DNA from: Candidatus Sysuiplasma jiujiangense
GTDB taxonomy: Archaea; Thermoplasmatota; Thermoplasmata; Sysuiplasmatales; Sysuiplasmataceae
Direction of reading: 5' to 3'
Assembly (NCBI GenBank): GCA_019721075.1
Contig: JAHEAD010000015.1
Coordinates: forward strand, 1 to 46,138
DNA: 46,138 nucleotides
Below are positions 8,658 to 14,173 of the stretch, piece after piece. The notes beneath the pieces were generated by a model. It did not search any database, was not told the origin of the DNA, and saw only the letters and a program-made list of their open reading frames with translations. Within the stretch, counting starts at the first letter, position 1, and each line of letters opens with the position of its first letter. Both the position numbers and the translations under genes were made by a program.

Positions 8658-9521
8658 ATGAAACCAAGTCGGGAAGAACTGTCCAATTTCAGGACGTGGG
8701 CGATAGGCAGCGGAAAATACTCTCCGTCCACTGCCGTCAGAATGAATGTGACCGTGAAGTCGCTTTCGAAAAGATTCGACATACACAACATTTCTGCCGA
8801 AAAATTATGGTCTTATGTCGAAACCGAAAGAAAGAAGGGAAAGTGCGAAGGCACAATAAACAATGAAATGAAGGATATCAGGGCATGGCTCTCATTCAGA
8901 AAATCAGATGTTCGGGTTCCGATGCTCAGGATGAAGCGGAGCTGTGAACCCTGGATACCGACCGACGAAGAAGTCTGGAAAATGATAAATTCAGAAAAGC
9001 TCAATGACGGAGGCCTGAAAGGATTGAGAAACCGGGTGATGATAGAGATACTTGCATTCTGCGGACTGAGGGTTGGCGAGATGACTCGACTGAAGGTGAG
9101 GGACTATCAGAACGGCAGACTGCATGTCGAGAGCGAGAAGCTGGAGGCGGACAGGATCGTCGCAATGCCCGATTTCGTCAGGGACGACATCGAAGAATAT
9201 CTGAAAGCTGCCGATTTGAAGATGGAAAGCCCGTTATTCACTTCGGGCAACGGCAGTCTTTCCTACCACTGCATAAGAAACGTGATAAGAAAAGTCAGCT
9301 GCGATTGCGGTATTGGAAAAATGCATCCGCATGCACTGAGACACTGGTGCGCTACCCGGCTGATAAAGAACCGTGTGAGTCTGAGGGCTGTCCAGATACA
9401 TCTCGGGCATGCAACAATCAGCACCACCGAACGATACACGCACCTTTCGGGAGAAGACGTTGCACGGGAGATAGAGACAAGTTTCAATTCTTACAGCAAC
9501 ACAAACAGACGAAAACAGTGA
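8658..9521 (+). CDS. Tyrosine recombinase/integrase (XerC/D-like)
   Basis: Catalytic set is intact: GLRVGE (R), SEKLE (K), HPHALRH (HxxR), HLGH and TERYTH (Y). Confidence 0.95.
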   Translation: MKPSREELSNFRTWAIGSGKYSPSTAVRMNVTVKSLSKRFDIHNISAEKLWSYVETERKKGKCEGTINNEMKDIRAWLSFRKSDVRVPMLRMKRSCEPWIPTDEEVWKMINSEKLNDGGLKGLRNRVMIEILAFCGLRVGEMTRLKVRDYQNGRLHVESEKLEADRIVAMPDFVRDDIEEYLKAADLKMESPLFTSGNGSLSYHCIRNVIRKVSCDCGIGKMHPHALRHWCATRLIKNRVSLRAVQIHLGHATISTTERYTHLSGEDVAREIETSFNSYSNTNRRKQ

Positions 9522-9851: not shown

Positions 9852-10058
9852 TTAGACAATATGTGAAAAGCCGATTATCACCAGTATAACCATAAGGATG
9901 ATGTAGAGCCTCAGAAACCAGAACGCCAATCTTGTCCGTCTGCTGAAAACTATCCTTTCCACAGGAATTTTTGCATAGTCTTCAAGTCCCTCCTCCACCA
10001 TAAATCTCCGGAAATAATCTTCATCATCTATCCTCGATTCAGTGTCCTCAGGCGTCAT
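9852..10058 (-). CDS. Small single-pass membrane protein co-transcribed with the NRAMP-family transporter
   Basis: 68 aa with a C-terminal TM helix (FWFLRLYIILMVILVIIGF). GGAGGTGA RBS; lies 15 bp downstream of the transporter gene. Confidence 0.8.
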   Translation of the reverse strand: MTPEDTESRIDDEDYFRRFMVEEGLEDYAKIPVERIVFSRRTRLAFWFLRLYIILMVILVIIGFSHIV

Positions 10059-10073
10059 TCACATCACCTCCAT

Positions 10074-11474
10074 TCACAGCCACCCCACGATGTGGCTGAA
10101 CAGGGCAGGAAGCGCGATCGACAGACCGTAAAGCGCATTCATCAGTATCAGGAAACCTATTATTGAAAAACCGATTGCATTCTGCCATCGTTTGTTGGTG
10201 CGGTCTCCCATTATCCCCTTGTCATTGAGGAGCAGCAGAAGAAACAGCATGGCTGCCGGCATGAAGATTGTGGCTATGACCTGTACTGTCAGGTTGAGAT
10301 AACCGAGCGGAGCACCGGGAATAAGTGTTACAGATGCCGCGATCGCAAGAGAGGCAAAACTTGGCAGGTAGAACATGACGCCGTCGCGTGCCGGAAGGTT
10401 TATACTCTTCTTCCAGCCGAATGCTTCACTCATTGCCCATGATGTACTGGCTGAAATCGCAATTGCAGCAATAAAACCCGCTTCTATGAGTCCGGCTGCG
10501 AATAGCTCCATCGGGAACACTCCCACCCTTGCTTCAAAGCTCAGCAGTATGCTGTCTATGCCTGGCGTGCCCCTGACAGCCGAGCCGTAAACTGTCATTC
10601 CGGTGAGTATAATGATGGCAATGGCGACTGCGACCATAACTGCCGAGCCTATAAGCGTATCCCGCTGTCCGAATTTTATGTCCTTTTCCGTCAGTCCCTT
10701 GTCCACGACAGAGGACTGCTGAAAGAACAGCATCCAGGGGGCAATGGTTGTGCCCAGGTTGGCAAGAAGGACGTAGATGAAAAGGGAACTCACGCCGCCG
10801 TTTATTCTCCATGTCGCGAAGCTGGCGGCGACCTGACTCCACGCGGGATGAGGCAGAAACAGCAGCAGCGGAATGAAAACAAGGTTGAAAACGGCTATAA
10901 AAAGCGAAACCCGTTCCCAGGTATAGTAACGCAGGAAGAGCTGTATTGCAATCACGATGCAGACGAAGACTGCGGCCGAGAATATACGTGGCACACCGAA
11001 TATAGACAGTCCGACAGTTATGCCTATAAATTCTGTGATAAGCGTCAGGAAGTTGGCAATAACCAGATCCCCCAGAGAGAAGGAACCCCAGAATTTGCCA
11101 TAATGTTTCCATATGAGTTCGGCGTGTCCCCTGTGGGTTACCGCCCCGAGCCTCACAGTCATTTCCTGCACAAAATATGCTACCGGAAGCATGAGTATCA
11201 TGAACGGTATGAAAAAACCTATGCCGAAGATAGCGCCGGTCTGCGCATACGTGATCACGCCGCCTGCATCGTTGTCTGCGATCATCACCAGTATGCCCGG
11301 GCCGATTAAAATGAAAAAGAGTTCCAGTCTTGAAAGACGCGTGTGCCTTTCACGGTGAAAAGCCACATGCAGCCTGTCTTCCGCCCTGTACCTGATATCG
11401 ACAGGGAGCGAATTTAACTGCTTCATCATCTCGGTTTCCGTATGCTCGGAAACATGCTTTTTCCAGGATGACAA
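10074..11474 (-). CDS. NRAMP-family divalent metal transporter, NRMT/Mg2+-type (DNDAGG motif)
   Basis: GPGILVMIADNDAGG, QEMTVRLG and ANLGTTIAPWMLFFQQSSVVDKG; about 11 TM helices. GGAGGT RBS before the TTG start. Confidence 0.92.
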   Translation of the reverse strand: MSSWKKHVSEHTETEMMKQLNSLPVDIRYRAEDRLHVAFHRERHTRLSRLELFFILIGPGILVMIADNDAGGVITYAQTGAIFGIGFFIPFMILMLPVAYFVQEMTVRLGAVTHRGHAELIWKHYGKFWGSFSLGDLVIANFLTLITEFIGITVGLSIFGVPRIFSAAVFVCIVIAIQLFLRYYTWERVSLFIAVFNLVFIPLLLFLPHPAWSQVAASFATWRINGGVSSLFIYVLLANLGTTIAPWMLFFQQSSVVDKGLTEKDIKFGQRDTLIGSAVMVAVAIAIIILTGMTVYGSAVRGTPGIDSILLSFEARVGVFPMELFAAGLIEAGFIAAIAISASTSWAMSEAFGWKKSINLPARDGVMFYLPSFASLAIAASVTLIPGAPLGYLNLTVQVIATIFMPAAMLFLLLLLNDKGIMGDRTNKRWQNAIGFSIIGFLILMNALYGLSIALPALFSHIVGWL

Positions 11475-11543
11475 TCAGGGAACCTCCATTTTGACTGCTG
11501 TTGTTAAATTAAAATTGCCTCAGATTTGTCAGGGGAGAACGGG

Positions 11544-11580
11544 TGAAAAAAAGAAGGCTTACTGCCCGCATGCACGGGTG
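11544..11580 (-). terminator. Candidate attenuator terminator: GC hairpin followed by a U-rich tract
   Basis: Minus strand CCCGT-GCAT-GCGGG (11578-11565), followed by AAGCCTTCTTTTTTT with a U7 tract at 11552-11546. Confidence 0.5.
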
Positions 11581-11588
11581 CAAAACTG

Positions 11589-11666
11589 TTAATGGCACAA
11601 GACAGGCGGAGCGAAACTGGTTCCATAAGAACTGAAGATGGCACTATTGGGGGGTTCATCGTTCAT
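11589..11666 (-). CDS. Putative 25-aa proline-rich leader peptide (MNDEPPNSAIFSSYGTSFAPPVLCH)
   Basis: Read directly from the sequence. AGGTGACGGAGG precedes the ATG at 11666 and TAA lies at 11591-11589. It sits in the leader of the Mg2+-type NRAMP gene and has two XPP motifs. Confidence 0.55.
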   Translation of the reverse strand: MNDEPPNSAIFSSYGTSFAPPVLCH

Positions 11667-12137
11667 CCTCCGTCACCTGCTGTTGCCCTTCACCCTTCCA
11701 TCATATATGTAGCTTCGTACGAATGCATTCTATGATTATTTTCCGCCTGCGGATTACAACTGCCAAAACTGAACGGATGCTTATCAAAACTTGAAAAATG
11801 CATGCATTCCGGAAAGATTCCGCTACCCGGAGCCAAACACTGCATGTTTGTGAGCTGCTGACAGCCGATCAAAAAGAATGAAGCGCTCTTCAGTCGTGCA
11901 GTATAAGTGTCTGTCACGATGCCCGTCCTGGCGCTGCCTTTCCTTTCACTGCTTGCCTGGGATGCAGCATCACTCCGCACCTGTCAGCAGTTTCCTGCGG
12001 GAGAGCAGTGGCACAGATCTGTGAAAACTTCACTTCCGGAATAGCCCGTCGGTCGTTATCAAACCAATGAACTTGCATACTGAAGCTTTTTATTTCATTA
12101 CCCGATGGAAAATGCGAAATTGTGATTGTGATCTTGT

Positions 12138-14173
12138 ATGCGTTCCGGGAACGGTGGAATAAAAATACTCTACGTTGACGACGAGTGTTTTCTACACGAT
12201 CCGTTCAAGCTCTACATGGAGAAGGACGGCGAATTCCTCGTCGATGCCGTGGACTCGGCAAATAAGGCGCTGGAAAGGCTGTCCTCCGGCCACTACGATG
12301 CTGTTGTGTCTGACTACCAGATGCCCGGAATGGACGGGATAGGATTTTTGAAGCATCTCCGTTCGAAAGACAGGAAGATTCCGTTCATTCTGTTTACCGG
12401 GAGGGGGAGGGAGGAAGTGGCAATCGAAGCAATAAACAGCGGTGCAGACTTCTACTTACAGAAGGGAGGAGACATTTCTTCCCAGTTCGCTGAACTCACC
12501 CATTTCATCAAAGGTGTGGTTGAAAGCCGTGAAGCGGAGGAAGAGCTCGTAGCGATGGAAAGGAAACTCACATCCTTCTTCGCGCACACAGCTGATGCCA
12601 TCGTCCTCTTTGACGGCGGCGGAAATGTGCTCAACATCAACGCTGCCGCGGAACAGCTCTTCGGAGCGACCGAAAGCGAACTTGCGGGCAGGAGACTCAC
12701 GCTGCGCGGTGAAGGTGCAACAGCAAGATTCGATGAGATATTCAGAAAGACTGTTGAGAAGGGGACTCCGATGAGCCATGACGAAGTGCTGGAGAGGAGT
12801 GACGGCGGCCGTTTGTACCTGAGCGTCAGTATGACGCCGATAAGGGATGCATCCGGTGGTGTTGCGTTCGTCGCCTGCACGATCAGGGATGTGACAGACA
12901 AGACACGTTCCCAGGCGCTTGTGAGGGCCATACGCGATACGTCCATTGCGGTGCTCAGGGAAAGACCGCTTGACGGCATTCTTTCATATCTGTGCGGCAC
13001 CGTAGCGGAGATATTCCAGTTCAGGGGAGTCGGCGTATTTCTCAAGGAGAATGACGGTTCTCTCAGACTTCTGTCGAGGGCGGAAAATATGCCGGAGTTC
13101 GGGATGGAAAAGGCGGTACGATGGGATGACAGCCCCGGCGGAAGAACACTGACAGGCAGTGCGGTGCGAACCGGCAGGATCCGGGTGGGCCGTATTGACG
13201 ATCCTGATTGCATTGAGTGGAAGGATATTGTGGGGAAGGACGGTTACGATTCGGTCATTTCCATACCGATTGTATCAGGGGACCAGACAATGGGCGCAAT
13301 GACCGTGGTAGGCAGCGACCTACGGAAAATTTCAGCTGAAGCGATAGGACAACTGGAAAACGCAGCGGAAGCCATAAGCATTGCAATACAGTCATCGCGG
13401 CAAAGGGAAAAACAGAAGCTTCTGGAGGCAGCCCTCGAGAGCGCGAGCGACACTGTAGTTCTCACCGACAAGGAAGGCATAATCGAATGGGCAAACCACG
13501 CATTCACGCTAACCACCGGTTATACCCTCGATGAGGTGAAGGGCAGGACGCCACGGGTGTTGAAATCAGGGAAGCACGACGCCGCTTTCTACAAAAACCT
13601 CTGGAATACTATACTTTCCGGAAAGGTGTTCCATGCAAGACTCACGAACAGACGCAAGAATGGCGAACTGTACATAGAGGATACTGTTATCACCCCGGTG
13701 GCGAATGAAAAAGGCACCATCTCGAACTTCATTGCTATAAAGAGGGACGTAACAGAGCAGATGACCTTGATGAAGAACTGCGGAAGAGCGAGGAGAGATA
13801 CAGGACGATGCTCGAGGGCATCGGCGAAACATACTTCGAGATCGATCTGAACGGCAACCTCACATTATTCAGCGACACGCTTTGCGGGATAACCGGGTAT
13901 TCGCGGGAGGAGCTTGCCGGCATGAATTACAGAAACTACGTCAGCAGGAAGACCGCAGAGAGATTATACGAAGTCTTTGACAATGTGTTTCTTACAGGCA
14001 GGCTCGAGGCGGGAGTCGACTGCGAAATAGCAGGGAAGCAAGGCAAGGGCACATTGATGGAGGCATCAGTACAGCTCATGAAGGACAAGGACGGCAAACC
14101 GGAAGGATTCAGTGGCCTGGTCAGAGAGATGACTGCAGGCTGTCACGATCATTCAAAGGGACACAAACAGTAA
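12138..14173 (+). pseudogene. REC-PAS-GAF-PAS-PAS sensory protein with a 1-bp frameshift near 13765 (real or assembly error)
   Basis: REC motifs (ILYVDDE, VVSDYQMPGMDG, FTGRG, YLQKG) plus PAS and GAF motifs. Adding one C at ATGACCTTGAT restores ...MTLDEELRKSEERYRTMLEGIGETYFEIDLNG, joining ORF 12138-13850 to ORF 13808-14173. Confidence 0.85.

Follow-up and report, generated by a model that had tools for sequence, protein, structure and literature searches.

The systems closest to the leader analysed here are the Mg2+-responsive leader peptides of enterobacteria. In MgtL, the proline-rich leader that controls mgtA, the residues EPDP come immediately after the initiator methionine and translation has been described to abort within MEPDPT, more so at low Mg2+; the published accounts take as D/E/P-rich an N-terminus with at least four such residues among the six that follow the Met, and they include the upstream open reading frame (uORF) mgtQ, located before mgtB, as a second MgtL-like case. 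Mg2+-dependent destabilisation or pausing of the ribosome is described, in the literature that we found, only for the ribosomes of E. coli and Salmonella. The importers relevant to the present locus are the NRAMP-related Mg2+ transporters (NRMTs), which were originally defined, in the description of NrmT, by their association with the M-box, and whose signature is a DxxG motif in helix 1 where other family members have DxxN, together with TxxA/T instead of AxxM in helix 6 (eLife 2022).

The stretch of DNA analysed, hereafter the window, is the 46,138-nucleotide contig JAHEAD010000015.1 of Candidatus Sysuiplasma jiujiangense (Thermoplasmata; assembly GCA_019721075.1), an acid-mine archaeon. A preliminary description of the window had proposed that a MgtL-like, proline-rich leader peptide controls an NRAMP gene of the Mg2+ type in place of an M-box riboswitch, ribosome stalling at XPP motifs choosing between a terminator and an antiterminator. 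Archaea have, as far as we are aware, yielded few cis-regulatory devices, and full-text literature searches found no leader-peptide-based control in this domain, in agreement with the earlier view that such a device had not been described there. We propose, with doubt and confidence about evenly balanced, that this region forms the 5' leader of an operon for an NRMT Mg2+ importer, and that it acts through the translation of two short overlapping ORFs; neither a riboswitch nor a hairpin terminator would be involved.

Results

The transporter gene and the place of the M-box

The gene downstream of the leader (positions 10074 to 11474 of the minus strand, on which all features described below lie; 466 amino acids, TTG start) matches the Pfam Nramp family (E = 2.6e-56), and its product begins with MSSWKKH, an N-terminus common to its orthologues in the alignment of leaders and starts. 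A Shine-Dalgarno (SD) sequence, GGAGG (11483 to 11487), lies 8 nt before the TTG and is found in both the sequence and the alignment. The top match of the transporter among solved structures is EleNRMT (7qia; E = 1.4e-52), the other four matched NRAMP-family chains, three of which are named MntH, scoring E = 5.3e-15 or weaker, and the NCBIfam MntH model gave 94.8 bits against a cut-off of 430. Both parts of the NRMT signature are present, as D-A-G-G and as T-T-I-A followed by P-W, and the stretches NDAGG and GTTIAPWM are identical between the transporter and EleNRMT when the two are aligned. Consistent with the class assigned to it earlier, the gene is, as judged from its sequence, that of an NRMT-type Mg2+ transporter; Mg2+ transport by its product is supported only indirectly, by the M-boxes found upstream of orthologues sharing 44-64% identity. 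Directly 3' of the transporter gene is a small ORF with its own SD (9852 to 10058) that encodes a single-helix protein of 68 residues. By tblastn it was found 3' of the transporter gene in 65/166 loci, which belong to several phyla, and it had no family match in a Pfam search; going by this recurrence, NRMT genes have it as a conserved companion.

An M-box was found directly upstream, and on the same strand, of orthologous transporter genes in 23 of the 80 sources scanned. In contrast, an Rfam scan of window positions 11000-12500 returned neither an M-box (RF00380) nor any other match at E <= 10, and none of the related leaders L004 and L009-L017 carried an M-box at gathering score. Judged by position, the leader stands where an M-box is found in bacterial orthologues, the Thermoplasmata-clade leaders having none, as the preliminary description had suggested for the window. 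That orthologues are under M-box control points to Mg2+ as the signal.

ORF A, a conserved leader ORF

The candidate sensor, ORF A (11589 to 11666), consists of 25 codons, MNDEPPNSAIFSSYGTSFAPPVLCH, with its ATG at 11666 and a TAA at 11591-11589, and starts 192 nt upstream of the NRMT start. Its product, MNDEPPNS..., has an N-terminus rich in acidic residues and prolines. It is preceded by a purine-rich block, AGGTGACGGAGG (11667 to 11678), which comprises AGGTGA, 6 nt before the ATG of ORF A, and GGAGG (11671-11667), 7 nt before the ATG of ORF B, a second frame described below. In all orthologous leaders a GGAGG-like block is kept 6-8 nt before the conserved Asp codon.

ORF A recurs, beyond chance, in 11/11 orthologous Thermoplasmata leaders. 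When a single regular expression was used, its motif was found in 9/9 close Thermoplasmata loci and in genomes G000 and G001, and in 0/71 more distant loci. The 11 archaeal leaders amount to about eight lineages only, or to 10 leaders once made non-redundant, and since a metagenome scan for further archaeal relatives yielded none above 65% identity, the archaeal set remained at 11. The alignment places the conserved core at codons 3-6 (11649 to 11660; GAT GAA CCC CCC, D-E-P-P). Among the 10 non-redundant leaders the Asp is present in 10/10, a Glu, Asp or Lys follows it in 10/10, the first Pro is found in 8/10 and the second in 10/10; three archaeal leaders have Lys, not an acidic residue, at codon 4. 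The pattern [DEK]-P-P-[GNS] occurs in 9/11 archaeal leaders (E-P-P-N in the window), the other two having A-P or H-P.

Variation within the core falls on third codon positions, the majority counts at positions 1/2/3 of the four codons being 10/10/8, 8/10/5, 9/9/6 and 10/10/4. Over the first 60 nt, pN/pS in frame A was low in 5/5 pairs (0.12, 0.28, 0.28, 0.45 and 0.30), three of which were drawn from a single subgroup. The coding-type substitutions indicate that the unannotated uORF is a real and conserved gene element under purifying selection in its own frame. Constraint is limited to the first 8 to 20 residues, length and C-terminus varying between leaders; between G000 and G001 the length and frame of ORF A are kept, and its middle diverges at an intergenic-like rate.

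On another reading, the conserved block, GAYGARCCNCCN, would act as RNA or DNA, either as a site bound by a protein or as a small motif like a riboswitch, and the reading frames would be incidental to it; this appears most improbable. The block does overlap the conserved purine-rich stretch, and three bacterial loci (L019-L021) retain CCGACAGTAG without an obvious ORF. However, period-3 variation and low pN/pS are seen in frame A only, an in-frame start codon is present in 11/11 archaeal leaders, the Pro codon uses all four third bases in the bacterial group, and the block has no Rfam match at E <= 10.

The N-terminus of ORF A is also MgtL-like in composition, as had been claimed: residues 2-7, NDEPPN, include four D, E or P out of six. 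The same count is reached by three leaders with a start two codons before the Asp (IDEPPS in L009, SDEPPN in L015 and NDEPPG in L017), while a fourth, L016, reaches three out of six (SDKPPS). As for the two XPP motifs originally pointed out, the first, EPP, is present within the conserved core, but conservation of the second, APP, fails even inside the genus: it already reads ATP in the same-genus G001 and has no counterpart in 8/9 other leaders, L013 alone having a C-terminal YPPFF.

The pattern ATGNNNGAYRANCCNCCN was found in the window's own genome in the leader itself and in one antisense hit inside a gene, which we treated as a chance match; no further regulon members were detected with it. 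Likewise, small ORFs with D/E/P-rich N-termini upstream of long ORFs were not enriched genome-wide, with 83 in the sense and 83 in the antisense orientation. Programmed +1 frameshifting at the Pro codons, by which ribosomes would pass from ORF A to ORF B, was rejected as a general mechanism, only the window having a slippery CCC CCC A where its relatives have CCG CCA or CCA CCT.

ORF B, a second overlapping frame

Overlooked by the preliminary description, ORF B (11504 to 11659; 51 codons), taken from the list of ORFs, is read in the +1 frame with respect to ORF A. It starts at an ATG located inside codons 3-4 of ORF A, with its own well-spaced SD, the GGAGG noted above. The frame is open in 11/11 leaders, and in 9/11 the first stop codon to close it lies between -4 and +2 relative to the start of the transporter gene (TAAATG, ATGA, TAGTG), a position held although leader lengths cover all three residues modulo 3. 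Shuffle P values for the frame were 0.004-0.19 per sequence, and in L013 ORF B has no canonical start codon. The spacing associated with translational coupling, about -4 to +1 nt, is found in 9/11 related leaders but not in the window, where 29 nt separate the end of ORF B from the TTG of the transporter gene. Polarity and spacing rules for archaeal coupling have been described in a review, by which a gap of this size is at the limit where coupling fades.

Unlike that of ORF A, the ORF B peptide is unconstrained, with pN/pS of 0.84-1.68 in the overlap with ORF A and 0.49-1.31 downstream of it. ORF B was discarded as the selected frame at the conserved block, since the variation there would then fall on second codon positions, with pN/pS of 0.84-1.68. 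We consider ORF B the more likely output device of the leader.

Both frames could alternatively be ordinary small genes or constitutive coupling ORFs, or ORF A could encode a protein acting in trans, with no sensor involved. We judge this distinctly unlikely, even if ORF B has the SD, start codon and stop/start juxtaposition of an operon gene and a conserved small protein gene is also present 3' of the transporter. The restriction of constraint in ORF A to its first 8 to 20 residues and the pN/pS of about 0.5-1.7 of ORF B argue against ordinary protein-coding genes, and the same N-terminal motif occurs in bacterial leaders beside hairpins that sequester the RBS (ribosome-binding site) as well as beside M-boxes.

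Hairpin, U tracts and the promoter

The RNA switch of the preliminary description consisted of a GC hairpin and U7 tract (11578-11546), acting as a terminator, and of an antiterminator duplex formed between a 5' segment (11698-11686) and positions 11550-11537, the choice between the two being made by a ribosome stalled at XPP. All of these elements, like every other feature that the preliminary description listed, are present where it placed them, and they are conserved in the same-genus G001; among the listed features, however, chance is exceeded only by the uORF with its first motif. The small hairpin, CCCGTGCATGCGGG (11565 to 11578), is without support for a function: the fold of its region (-10.5 kcal/mol) has z = 0.28, 114 of 200 shuffled sequences being at least as stable, and a consensus scan of the minus strand called no terminator. 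Stem and U tract are separated, the core stem ending 12 nt and the extended stem 5 nt before the T7, whereas an intrinsic terminator has a GC-rich stem with a U run within 0-2 nt. The hairpin is conserved only in the near-identical G001, and outside the genus neither it nor the 5' complementarity can be aligned.

The tract itself, T7 (11546 to 11552), located inside ORF B and 36 nt past the stop codon of ORF A, is a candidate archaeal oligo-U termination signal; archaeal termination needs no hairpin. It exceeds the five U residues expected of such signals, and T runs of five or more occur in 10/11 leaders. Counted over 10 leaders, there are 17 such runs where about four are expected, and a single A run of this length. 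U-tract positions vary between lineages, and G001 has a 3-nt, frame-preserving indel at the T7.

At the 5' end, a TATA-like box, ACATATATGA (11701 to 11710), aligns with TTTATATG-type boxes in orthologous leaders and, at the box-to-start distance of archaeal promoters in general, implies a transcription start near 11681-11678. The segment put forward as antiterminator, GAAGGGTGAAGGG (11686 to 11698), is situated between this conserved box and the inferred start and is therefore probably an untranscribed promoter spacer. In a population variant, 4 of its 13 bases are changed and positions 11650-11687 of the same contig are unchanged. Complementarity to 11550-11537 does exist, with seven contiguous pairs (GGGUGAA:UUCACCC), but the duplex, at -15.3 kcal/mol, is no stronger than what 48% of shuffled versions of the purine-rich segment form (P = 0.48), and the same test applied to ten other leaders gave P < 0.05 for only 1 of 17 tracts.

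Single-sequence folds of the 11 archaeal leaders revealed no common architecture, and no conserved RNA structure was found in these leaders. The mutually exclusive stem-loops, coupled to Rho-dependent termination, of the MgtL system were not recovered either, the 11 leaders having no shared fold and the anti-SD and antiterminator duplex tests being non-significant; we know of no Rho in archaea. The strongest pairing of the transporter RBS with the leader was, in 10/11 archaeal leaders, no better than in shuffled sequences, and in the window no significant anti-SD partner was found. The pairing probability of the SD (0.75 in archaeal and 0.77 in bacterial leaders) does not separate the two domains, and this measure was dropped. 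Since archaeal termination can do without a hairpin, the results on the hairpin and the 5' segment make the proposed terminator/antiterminator switch very unlikely; the position of the T7 after ORF A and the excess of T runs in orthologous leaders speak for it, as do the presence of its elements and their conservation in G001.

Leader ORFs upstream of bacterial NRMT genes

Small ORFs beginning M-x-[SD]-[DE]-P were present within 500 nt upstream of the transporter gene in 23/160 loci on the sense strand and in 0/160 on the antisense strand. Among loci with an M-box, an M-x-x-D-P ORF with an SD before it separates M-box and gene in 12/21, and three more have M-P-D-D; M-box and D-P leader ORF thus stand in series in 12/21 loci, which are of the Bacillota/Actinomycetes type. 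The bacterial ORFs, which have EPD or DPG and no Pro-Pro (MRSEPDSS and MSSDPGGH are examples), are followed by SD-sequestering hairpins, part of the uORF being complementary to the anti-SD arm. On this pattern, ORF A is a member of a family of leader ORFs that precede NRMT genes in both domains and in which codon 4 is acidic and codon 5 encodes Pro.

A two-ORF leader might also respond to something other than Mg2+, ORF A reporting the capacity for Pro-Pro translation (aIF5A hypusination or polyamines, or the supply of Pro-tRNA) or general translation status. The prevalence of E-P-P, D-P-P or K-P-P followed by G, N or S (9/11 archaeal leaders) would fit this reading, proline stalls relieved by EF-P or a/eIF5A have been described as universal, and a physiological link between polyamines and Mg2+ has been described in Salmonella. 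However, the bacterial peptide homologues, like two of the archaeal leaders, are devoid of Pro-Pro, and orthologous genes are under M-box control. Pro-Pro not being an invariant of the family, the mechanism that its members share cannot be an XPP/aIF5A stall alone, and we regard a signal other than Mg2+ as unlikely.

Discussion

Our analysis retains part of the original proposal, namely the uORF, the NRMT class of the transporter, the place of the M-box and the MgtL-like cluster, and leaves out the RNA switch and the second XPP motif. The leader is probably ribosome-mediated and Mg2+-responsive; the Mg2+ signal, the direction of regulation and the output through coupling or termination are what we infer. 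In the mechanism that we favour, ORF A (M-x-D-E-P-P-x-S) would be a translated sensor ORF with a MgtL-type N-terminus, and a ribosome on its D-E-P-P codons would cover the start site of ORF B. The dwell time at these codons, whether as a stable Pro-Pro pause or as the early drop-off of a destabilised ribosome, would be set by Mg2+, possibly also by aIF5A or Pro-tRNA, and would determine how frequently ORF B is translated. Translation of ORF B, which spans the hairpin and the T7 tract, would take ribosomes across the U-tract-bearing leader, may thereby shield it from oligo-U/FttA-type termination, and would deliver ribosomes to the transporter start. Tentatively, and with less confidence than in the two-ORF leader itself, we further suggest that a ribosome-intrinsic Mg2+ sensor, consisting of the acidic and Pro codons 4-5, is shared by bacteria and archaea before NRMT genes and moved with the gene among acid-mine organisms, its outputs being domain-specific: in bacteria a hairpin that sequesters the RBS, in some cases combined in series with an M-box, and in Thermoplasmata a second uORF that overlaps the first and has its start occluded when a ribosome sits on D-E-P-P.

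If this proposal is correct, no attenuator based on a leader peptide would have been described in archaea before this one, MgtL-type sensing would work on archaeal ribosomes, and the same transporter family would have a non-riboswitch alternative to the M-box. Should Mg2+ be sensed through the ribosome on an acidic/proline N-terminus, sensing of the MgtL type would reach beyond enterobacteria. The family would then provide a natural set of homologous sensor peptides with differing output modules in four phyla, making the mechanism testable in vitro, and the overlap of ORF A and ORF B would represent an unusual conversion of a ribosome pause into a gene-expression decision.

Compared with known systems, the E-P-P-N of ORF A resembles the XPP stalling motifs that EF-P or a/eIF5A relieve, but Pro-Pro is not family-wide. 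With the coupled ORFs of archaea and bacteria, the leader shares a stop of ORF B that abuts or overlaps the transporter start in 9/11 leaders, a spacing inside the range of -4 to +1 that the review gives for coupled genes; it differs from them in its unconstrained peptide, in a start codon inside another conserved ORF and, in the window, in the 29-nt gap. The M-box (ykoK) riboswitch has the identical position upstream of orthologous transporter genes, on the same strand, whereas the archaeal element is protein-coding, neither the window nor the ten related archaeal leaders having an M-box. The resemblance to MgtL and mgtQ is that the leader of a Mg2+ importer gene contains a short ORF, the translation of which would be expected to decide downstream expression; the RBS-sequestering hairpin of mgtQ has its like in the bacterial members of the ORF A family. 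MgtL has its acidic/proline cluster directly after the Met (M-E-P-D-P, against M-N-D-E-P-P in ORF A), and the acidic codon 4 and Pro codon 5 of the family correspond to its D4-P5, in peptides too short to establish homology. Differently from MgtL, the present leader belongs to an archaeon, precedes an NRMT and not a P-type ATPase gene, has no conserved alternative stem-loops that we could find, and apparently uses as its output another ORF, which overlaps the first and whose frame stays open as far as the transporter start.

A Mg2+-type transporter gene whose leader stands in the place of the M-box

The gene at 11474-10074 on the minus strand, which has a TTG start and encodes a Pfam Nramp protein, had been described as a Mg2+-type NRAMP, and comparison with solved structures supports this. 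The EleNRMT Mg2+ transporter (7qia) was its best solved relative (E = 1.4e-52); matches to four other chains of the NRAMP family reached E 5e-15 or weaker. Alignment to EleNRMT revealed DAGG and TTIA, then PW, at the residues of the NRMT signature, which the accessible text of an eLife 2022 paper gives as DxxG and TxxA/T. The literature available to us describes NRMTs as first recognised through their association with the M-box. In Rfam scans, 23 of 80 sources had this Mg2+ riboswitch immediately 5' of the homologous transporter gene and in the same orientation (titles mostly of Bacillota, plus single Actinomycetes and Acidobacteriota records; transporters 44-64% identical to the archaeal protein). 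No M-box was found by Rfam scan in the leaders of the Thermoplasmata clade, and an Rfam search of the window's leader region returned no match even at E <= 10. As proposed earlier, the leader thus occupies the place of the bacterial M-box. Homologues at 82-85% identity bear the source names of uncultured Thermoplasmata or Thermoplasmatota, and the DNA runs that contain the leader region carry metagenome labels of mine drainage, mine tailings or sediment.

The transporter was present in just six of 61 related genomes searched, including one of nine other same-family genomes. A phage-integrase-family gene lies at 8658-9521 on the plus strand, 330 nt past the end of the transporter operon. The cassette may be mobile; the composition profile has no obvious shift. 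A 68-aa ORF (9852-10058, minus strand) begins 16 nt past the transporter stop; it has an SD of its own and a single hydrophobic helix. By tblastn it follows the transporter directly in 65 of 166 loci, which span archaea and several bacterial phyla, Pfam offered no family match, and the product is apparently a conserved small protein that partners NRMT transporters. Upstream, the leader promoter is separated from a divergent response-regulator/PAS/GAF gene (12138-13850, plus strand) by another 440 nt or so of intergenic DNA (11700-12138). Identity to a same-genus genome (G001) is 68-74% at 11850-11999 and 94-98% at 12000-12100, and a 96-codon ORF within the variable part (11690-11980, minus strand) is probably not a gene.

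ORF A is conserved across Thermoplasmata leaders

The small leader ORF of the preliminary description, here ORF A, runs on the minus strand from ATG at 11666 to TAA at 11591-11589 (25 codons, MNDEPPNSAIFSSYGTSFAPPVLCH) and is preceded by the purine-rich block AGGTGACGGAGG, read in that description as its ribosome-binding site; ORF A was retained in all 11 archaeal leaders compared, which represent about eight lineages. In G001 and in all nine loci from other Thermoplasmata genomes (transporters 76-85% identical), a purine-rich block and an in-frame start accompany D-[E/D/K]-P-P-[S/N/G]-[S/N/W], and these elements sit 144-187 nt 5' of the transporter start. The same regular expression had no match in 71 more distant loci. 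Among ten non-redundant leaders, positions 1 and 2 of the four core codons were near-invariant and position 3 variable (majority counts 10/10/8, 8/10/5, 9/9/6 and 10/10/4). Over the first 60 nt, pN/pS was 0.12-0.45 in the ORF A frame against 0.84-1.68 in the +1 frame in five of five pairs, three of them from one subgroup. Between the window's own genome and G001, the middle of ORF A has diverged to an intergenic-like level (74% identity in a 50-nt bin) without indels, and its start region, last codons and the remaining leader are almost identical. Judged by these substitution patterns, ORF A is conserved and translated.

Two XPP motifs had been noted in ORF A. The first (EPP) is conserved, although A-P or H-P replaces Pro-Pro in two archaeal leaders; the second (APP) is not, being ATP in G001 and lacking a counterpart in eight of the nine other leaders, with a C-terminal YPPFF only in L013. 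Five leaders have no start two codons ahead of Asp; each of these has an ATG or TTG in frame 9-10 codons to the 5' side, and L010 and L011 among them also have GTG in frame three codons ahead of Asp.

A second ORF overlaps ORF A in the +1 frame

ORF B, absent from the preliminary description, occupies 11659-11504 on the minus strand in the +1 frame relative to ORF A, its ATG lying inside the Asp-Glu codons, 7 nt past GGAGG. All 11 leaders keep this frame open, and in nine of them the first stop falls between -4 and +2 relative to the transporter start, in the arrangements TAAATG, ATGA or TAGTG, with leader lengths covering all three residues modulo 3. In dinucleotide shuffles of the individual sequences, 0.4-19% of trials kept the frame open as far as in the original, and a 3-nt T-run indel between the window's genome and G001 leaves it intact. 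The peptide is unconstrained (pN/pS 0.84-1.68 across the ORF A overlap and 0.49-1.31 downstream). An open frame with an unconstrained peptide argues that translation of ORF B is kept, not its product. The start codon is ATG in eight of the 11 leaders and a nearby TTG or GTG in two, with no canonical one in L013. In the window and G001 the ORF B stop is 29 nt short of the transporter start, at the edge of effective coupling by the ranges in the accessible part of a review (spacing of -4 to +1 typical, little beyond 30 nt). In L011 and L017, ATA and ATT stand at the aligned transporter start instead of ATG, GTG or TTG; errors in assembly, non-canonical initiation or dependence on reinitiation from ORF B could each account for this.

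The hairpin and the 5' segment

A hairpin and U7 tract had been proposed as a terminator. Both the small GC hairpin (11578-11565) and the T7 run (11552-11546, inside ORF B and 36 nt beyond the ORF A stop) are present on the minus strand, but the stability of the hairpin region is ordinary (z = 0.28; 114 of 200 shuffles as good) and a consensus terminator scan of that strand called none. The 5' segment at 11698-11686, held to sequester the U tract, does have seven contiguous bases complementary to the sequence past the T run; the duplex, however, was equalled by 48% of shuffles, and in the ten other leaders P fell below 0.05 for only one of 17 tracts. A population variant alters four of the segment's 13 bases, with the SD, start and D-E-P-P codons unchanged on the same contig. 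Furthermore, a TATA-like box (11710-11701, minus strand) aligns across leaders, and the usual archaeal box-to-start distance would put the transcription start near 11681-11678, so that the segment would be untranscribed. T runs of five or more are themselves enriched (17 in ten leaders versus about four expected, with one A5+ run), at varying positions.

Proposed mechanism

A two-ORF mechanism is most likely, with its signal, direction and termination step inferred. ORF A would act as sensor: a ribosome on D-E-P-P (codons 3-6) would cover the SD and ATG of ORF B, and its dwell time or early drop-off, varying with Mg2+ and perhaps also with aIF5A or Pro-tRNA, would set how often ORF B is translated. 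Translation of ORF B would take ribosomes over the U-tract-bearing leader and shield the transcript against termination where RNA is untranslated, a process attributed in archaea to FttA (review, accessible part); in most relatives it would also deliver ribosomes to the transporter start. Should drop-off rise at low Mg2+, the transporter would be induced at low Mg2+. Because ORF B translation is proposed to shield this leader, a version of translation-coupled attenuation at the U tract survives, with ORF B replacing the hairpin and antiterminator.

Related leader ORFs in bacteria

Small ORFs starting M-x-[SD]-[DE]-P at most 500 nt 5' of the transporter were found at 23 of 160 loci in sense and 0 of 160 in antisense. 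Three are Thermoplasmata leaders that match it strictly, 11 (MRSEPDSS...) come from uncultured bacteria of an AT-rich group, seven are from Bacillota including Sulfobacillus and Sulfoacidibacillus (M-x-S-D-P-G-G-H...), and two have MDSDPSCFH (L042, titled Acidithiobacillus, and L094, a metagenome contig). The family invariant is an acidic residue at codon 4 with Pro at codon 5, not Pro-Pro; all four third bases occur in the Pro codon of the bacterial group. An SD-preceded M-x-x-D-P ORF also lies between riboswitch and gene in 12 of 21 M-box-bearing loci, with M-P-D-D in three more.

The bacterial leader ORFs are followed by a hairpin pairing the transporter SD. Six of nine loci in the AT-rich group have an anti-SD arm complementary to uORF codons ~23-30 as well (individual P from <0.004 to 0.34), the helix changing compensatingly between loci. 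These pairings together give the classic three-element logic, in which a ribosome completing the uORF would allow the SD to be sequestered and one that aborts early would keep it free.

Three loci of the AT-rich group, L019-L021, retain the block CCGACAGTA(G/A)G at nucleotide level but lack the leader-ORF start codon, a sign perhaps of a decayed copy or of constraint on the RNA. In the long-form bacterial leaders L018, L028, L029 and L030, ~170 nt separate the SD-sequestering hairpin from the transporter; in L029 a further small hydrophobic ORF (MLKDKICKTCMAIFLLILAPFF...) lies in this stretch, and it is the SD of this ORF that the hairpin sequesters.

Comparison with MgtL and mgtQ

The preliminary description was aware of no such device described in archaea. 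Consistent with this, full-text literature searching, with subscription-only papers and supplements outside its scope, returned no description of such a leader, whether archaeal or ahead of NRMT genes; among the papers listed on MgtL with archaea, judged by titles and abstract beginnings, none dealt with an archaeal leader, and a full-text search joining M-box, leader peptide and Nramp gave none.

According to the accessible portion of a preprint by Chadani et al., MgtL carries EPDP immediately after its initiator Met, its translation aborts within MEPDPT because the ribosome is intrinsically destabilised, the abort is stronger at low Mg2+ and thereby raises mgtA, and a long nascent chain counteracts D/E/P destabilisation; the D/E/P-rich criterion there is at least four of six such residues. 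Residues 2-7 of ORF A (NDEPPN) satisfy this rule. The MgtL-like label stands as a likeness of kind, the peptides being too short for a claim of homology, and MgtL-type destabilisation has been shown only on bacterial ribosomes. In mgtQ, a second Salmonella uORF, Asp and Glu codons are described, in the part of the account available, as freeing the sequestered RBS of a Mg2+ transporter. MgtL and the bacterial three-element version share the direction of the low-Mg2+ induction proposed here. We rate leader-peptide control of a Mg2+ importer as known, and the host domain and the output arrangement as new.
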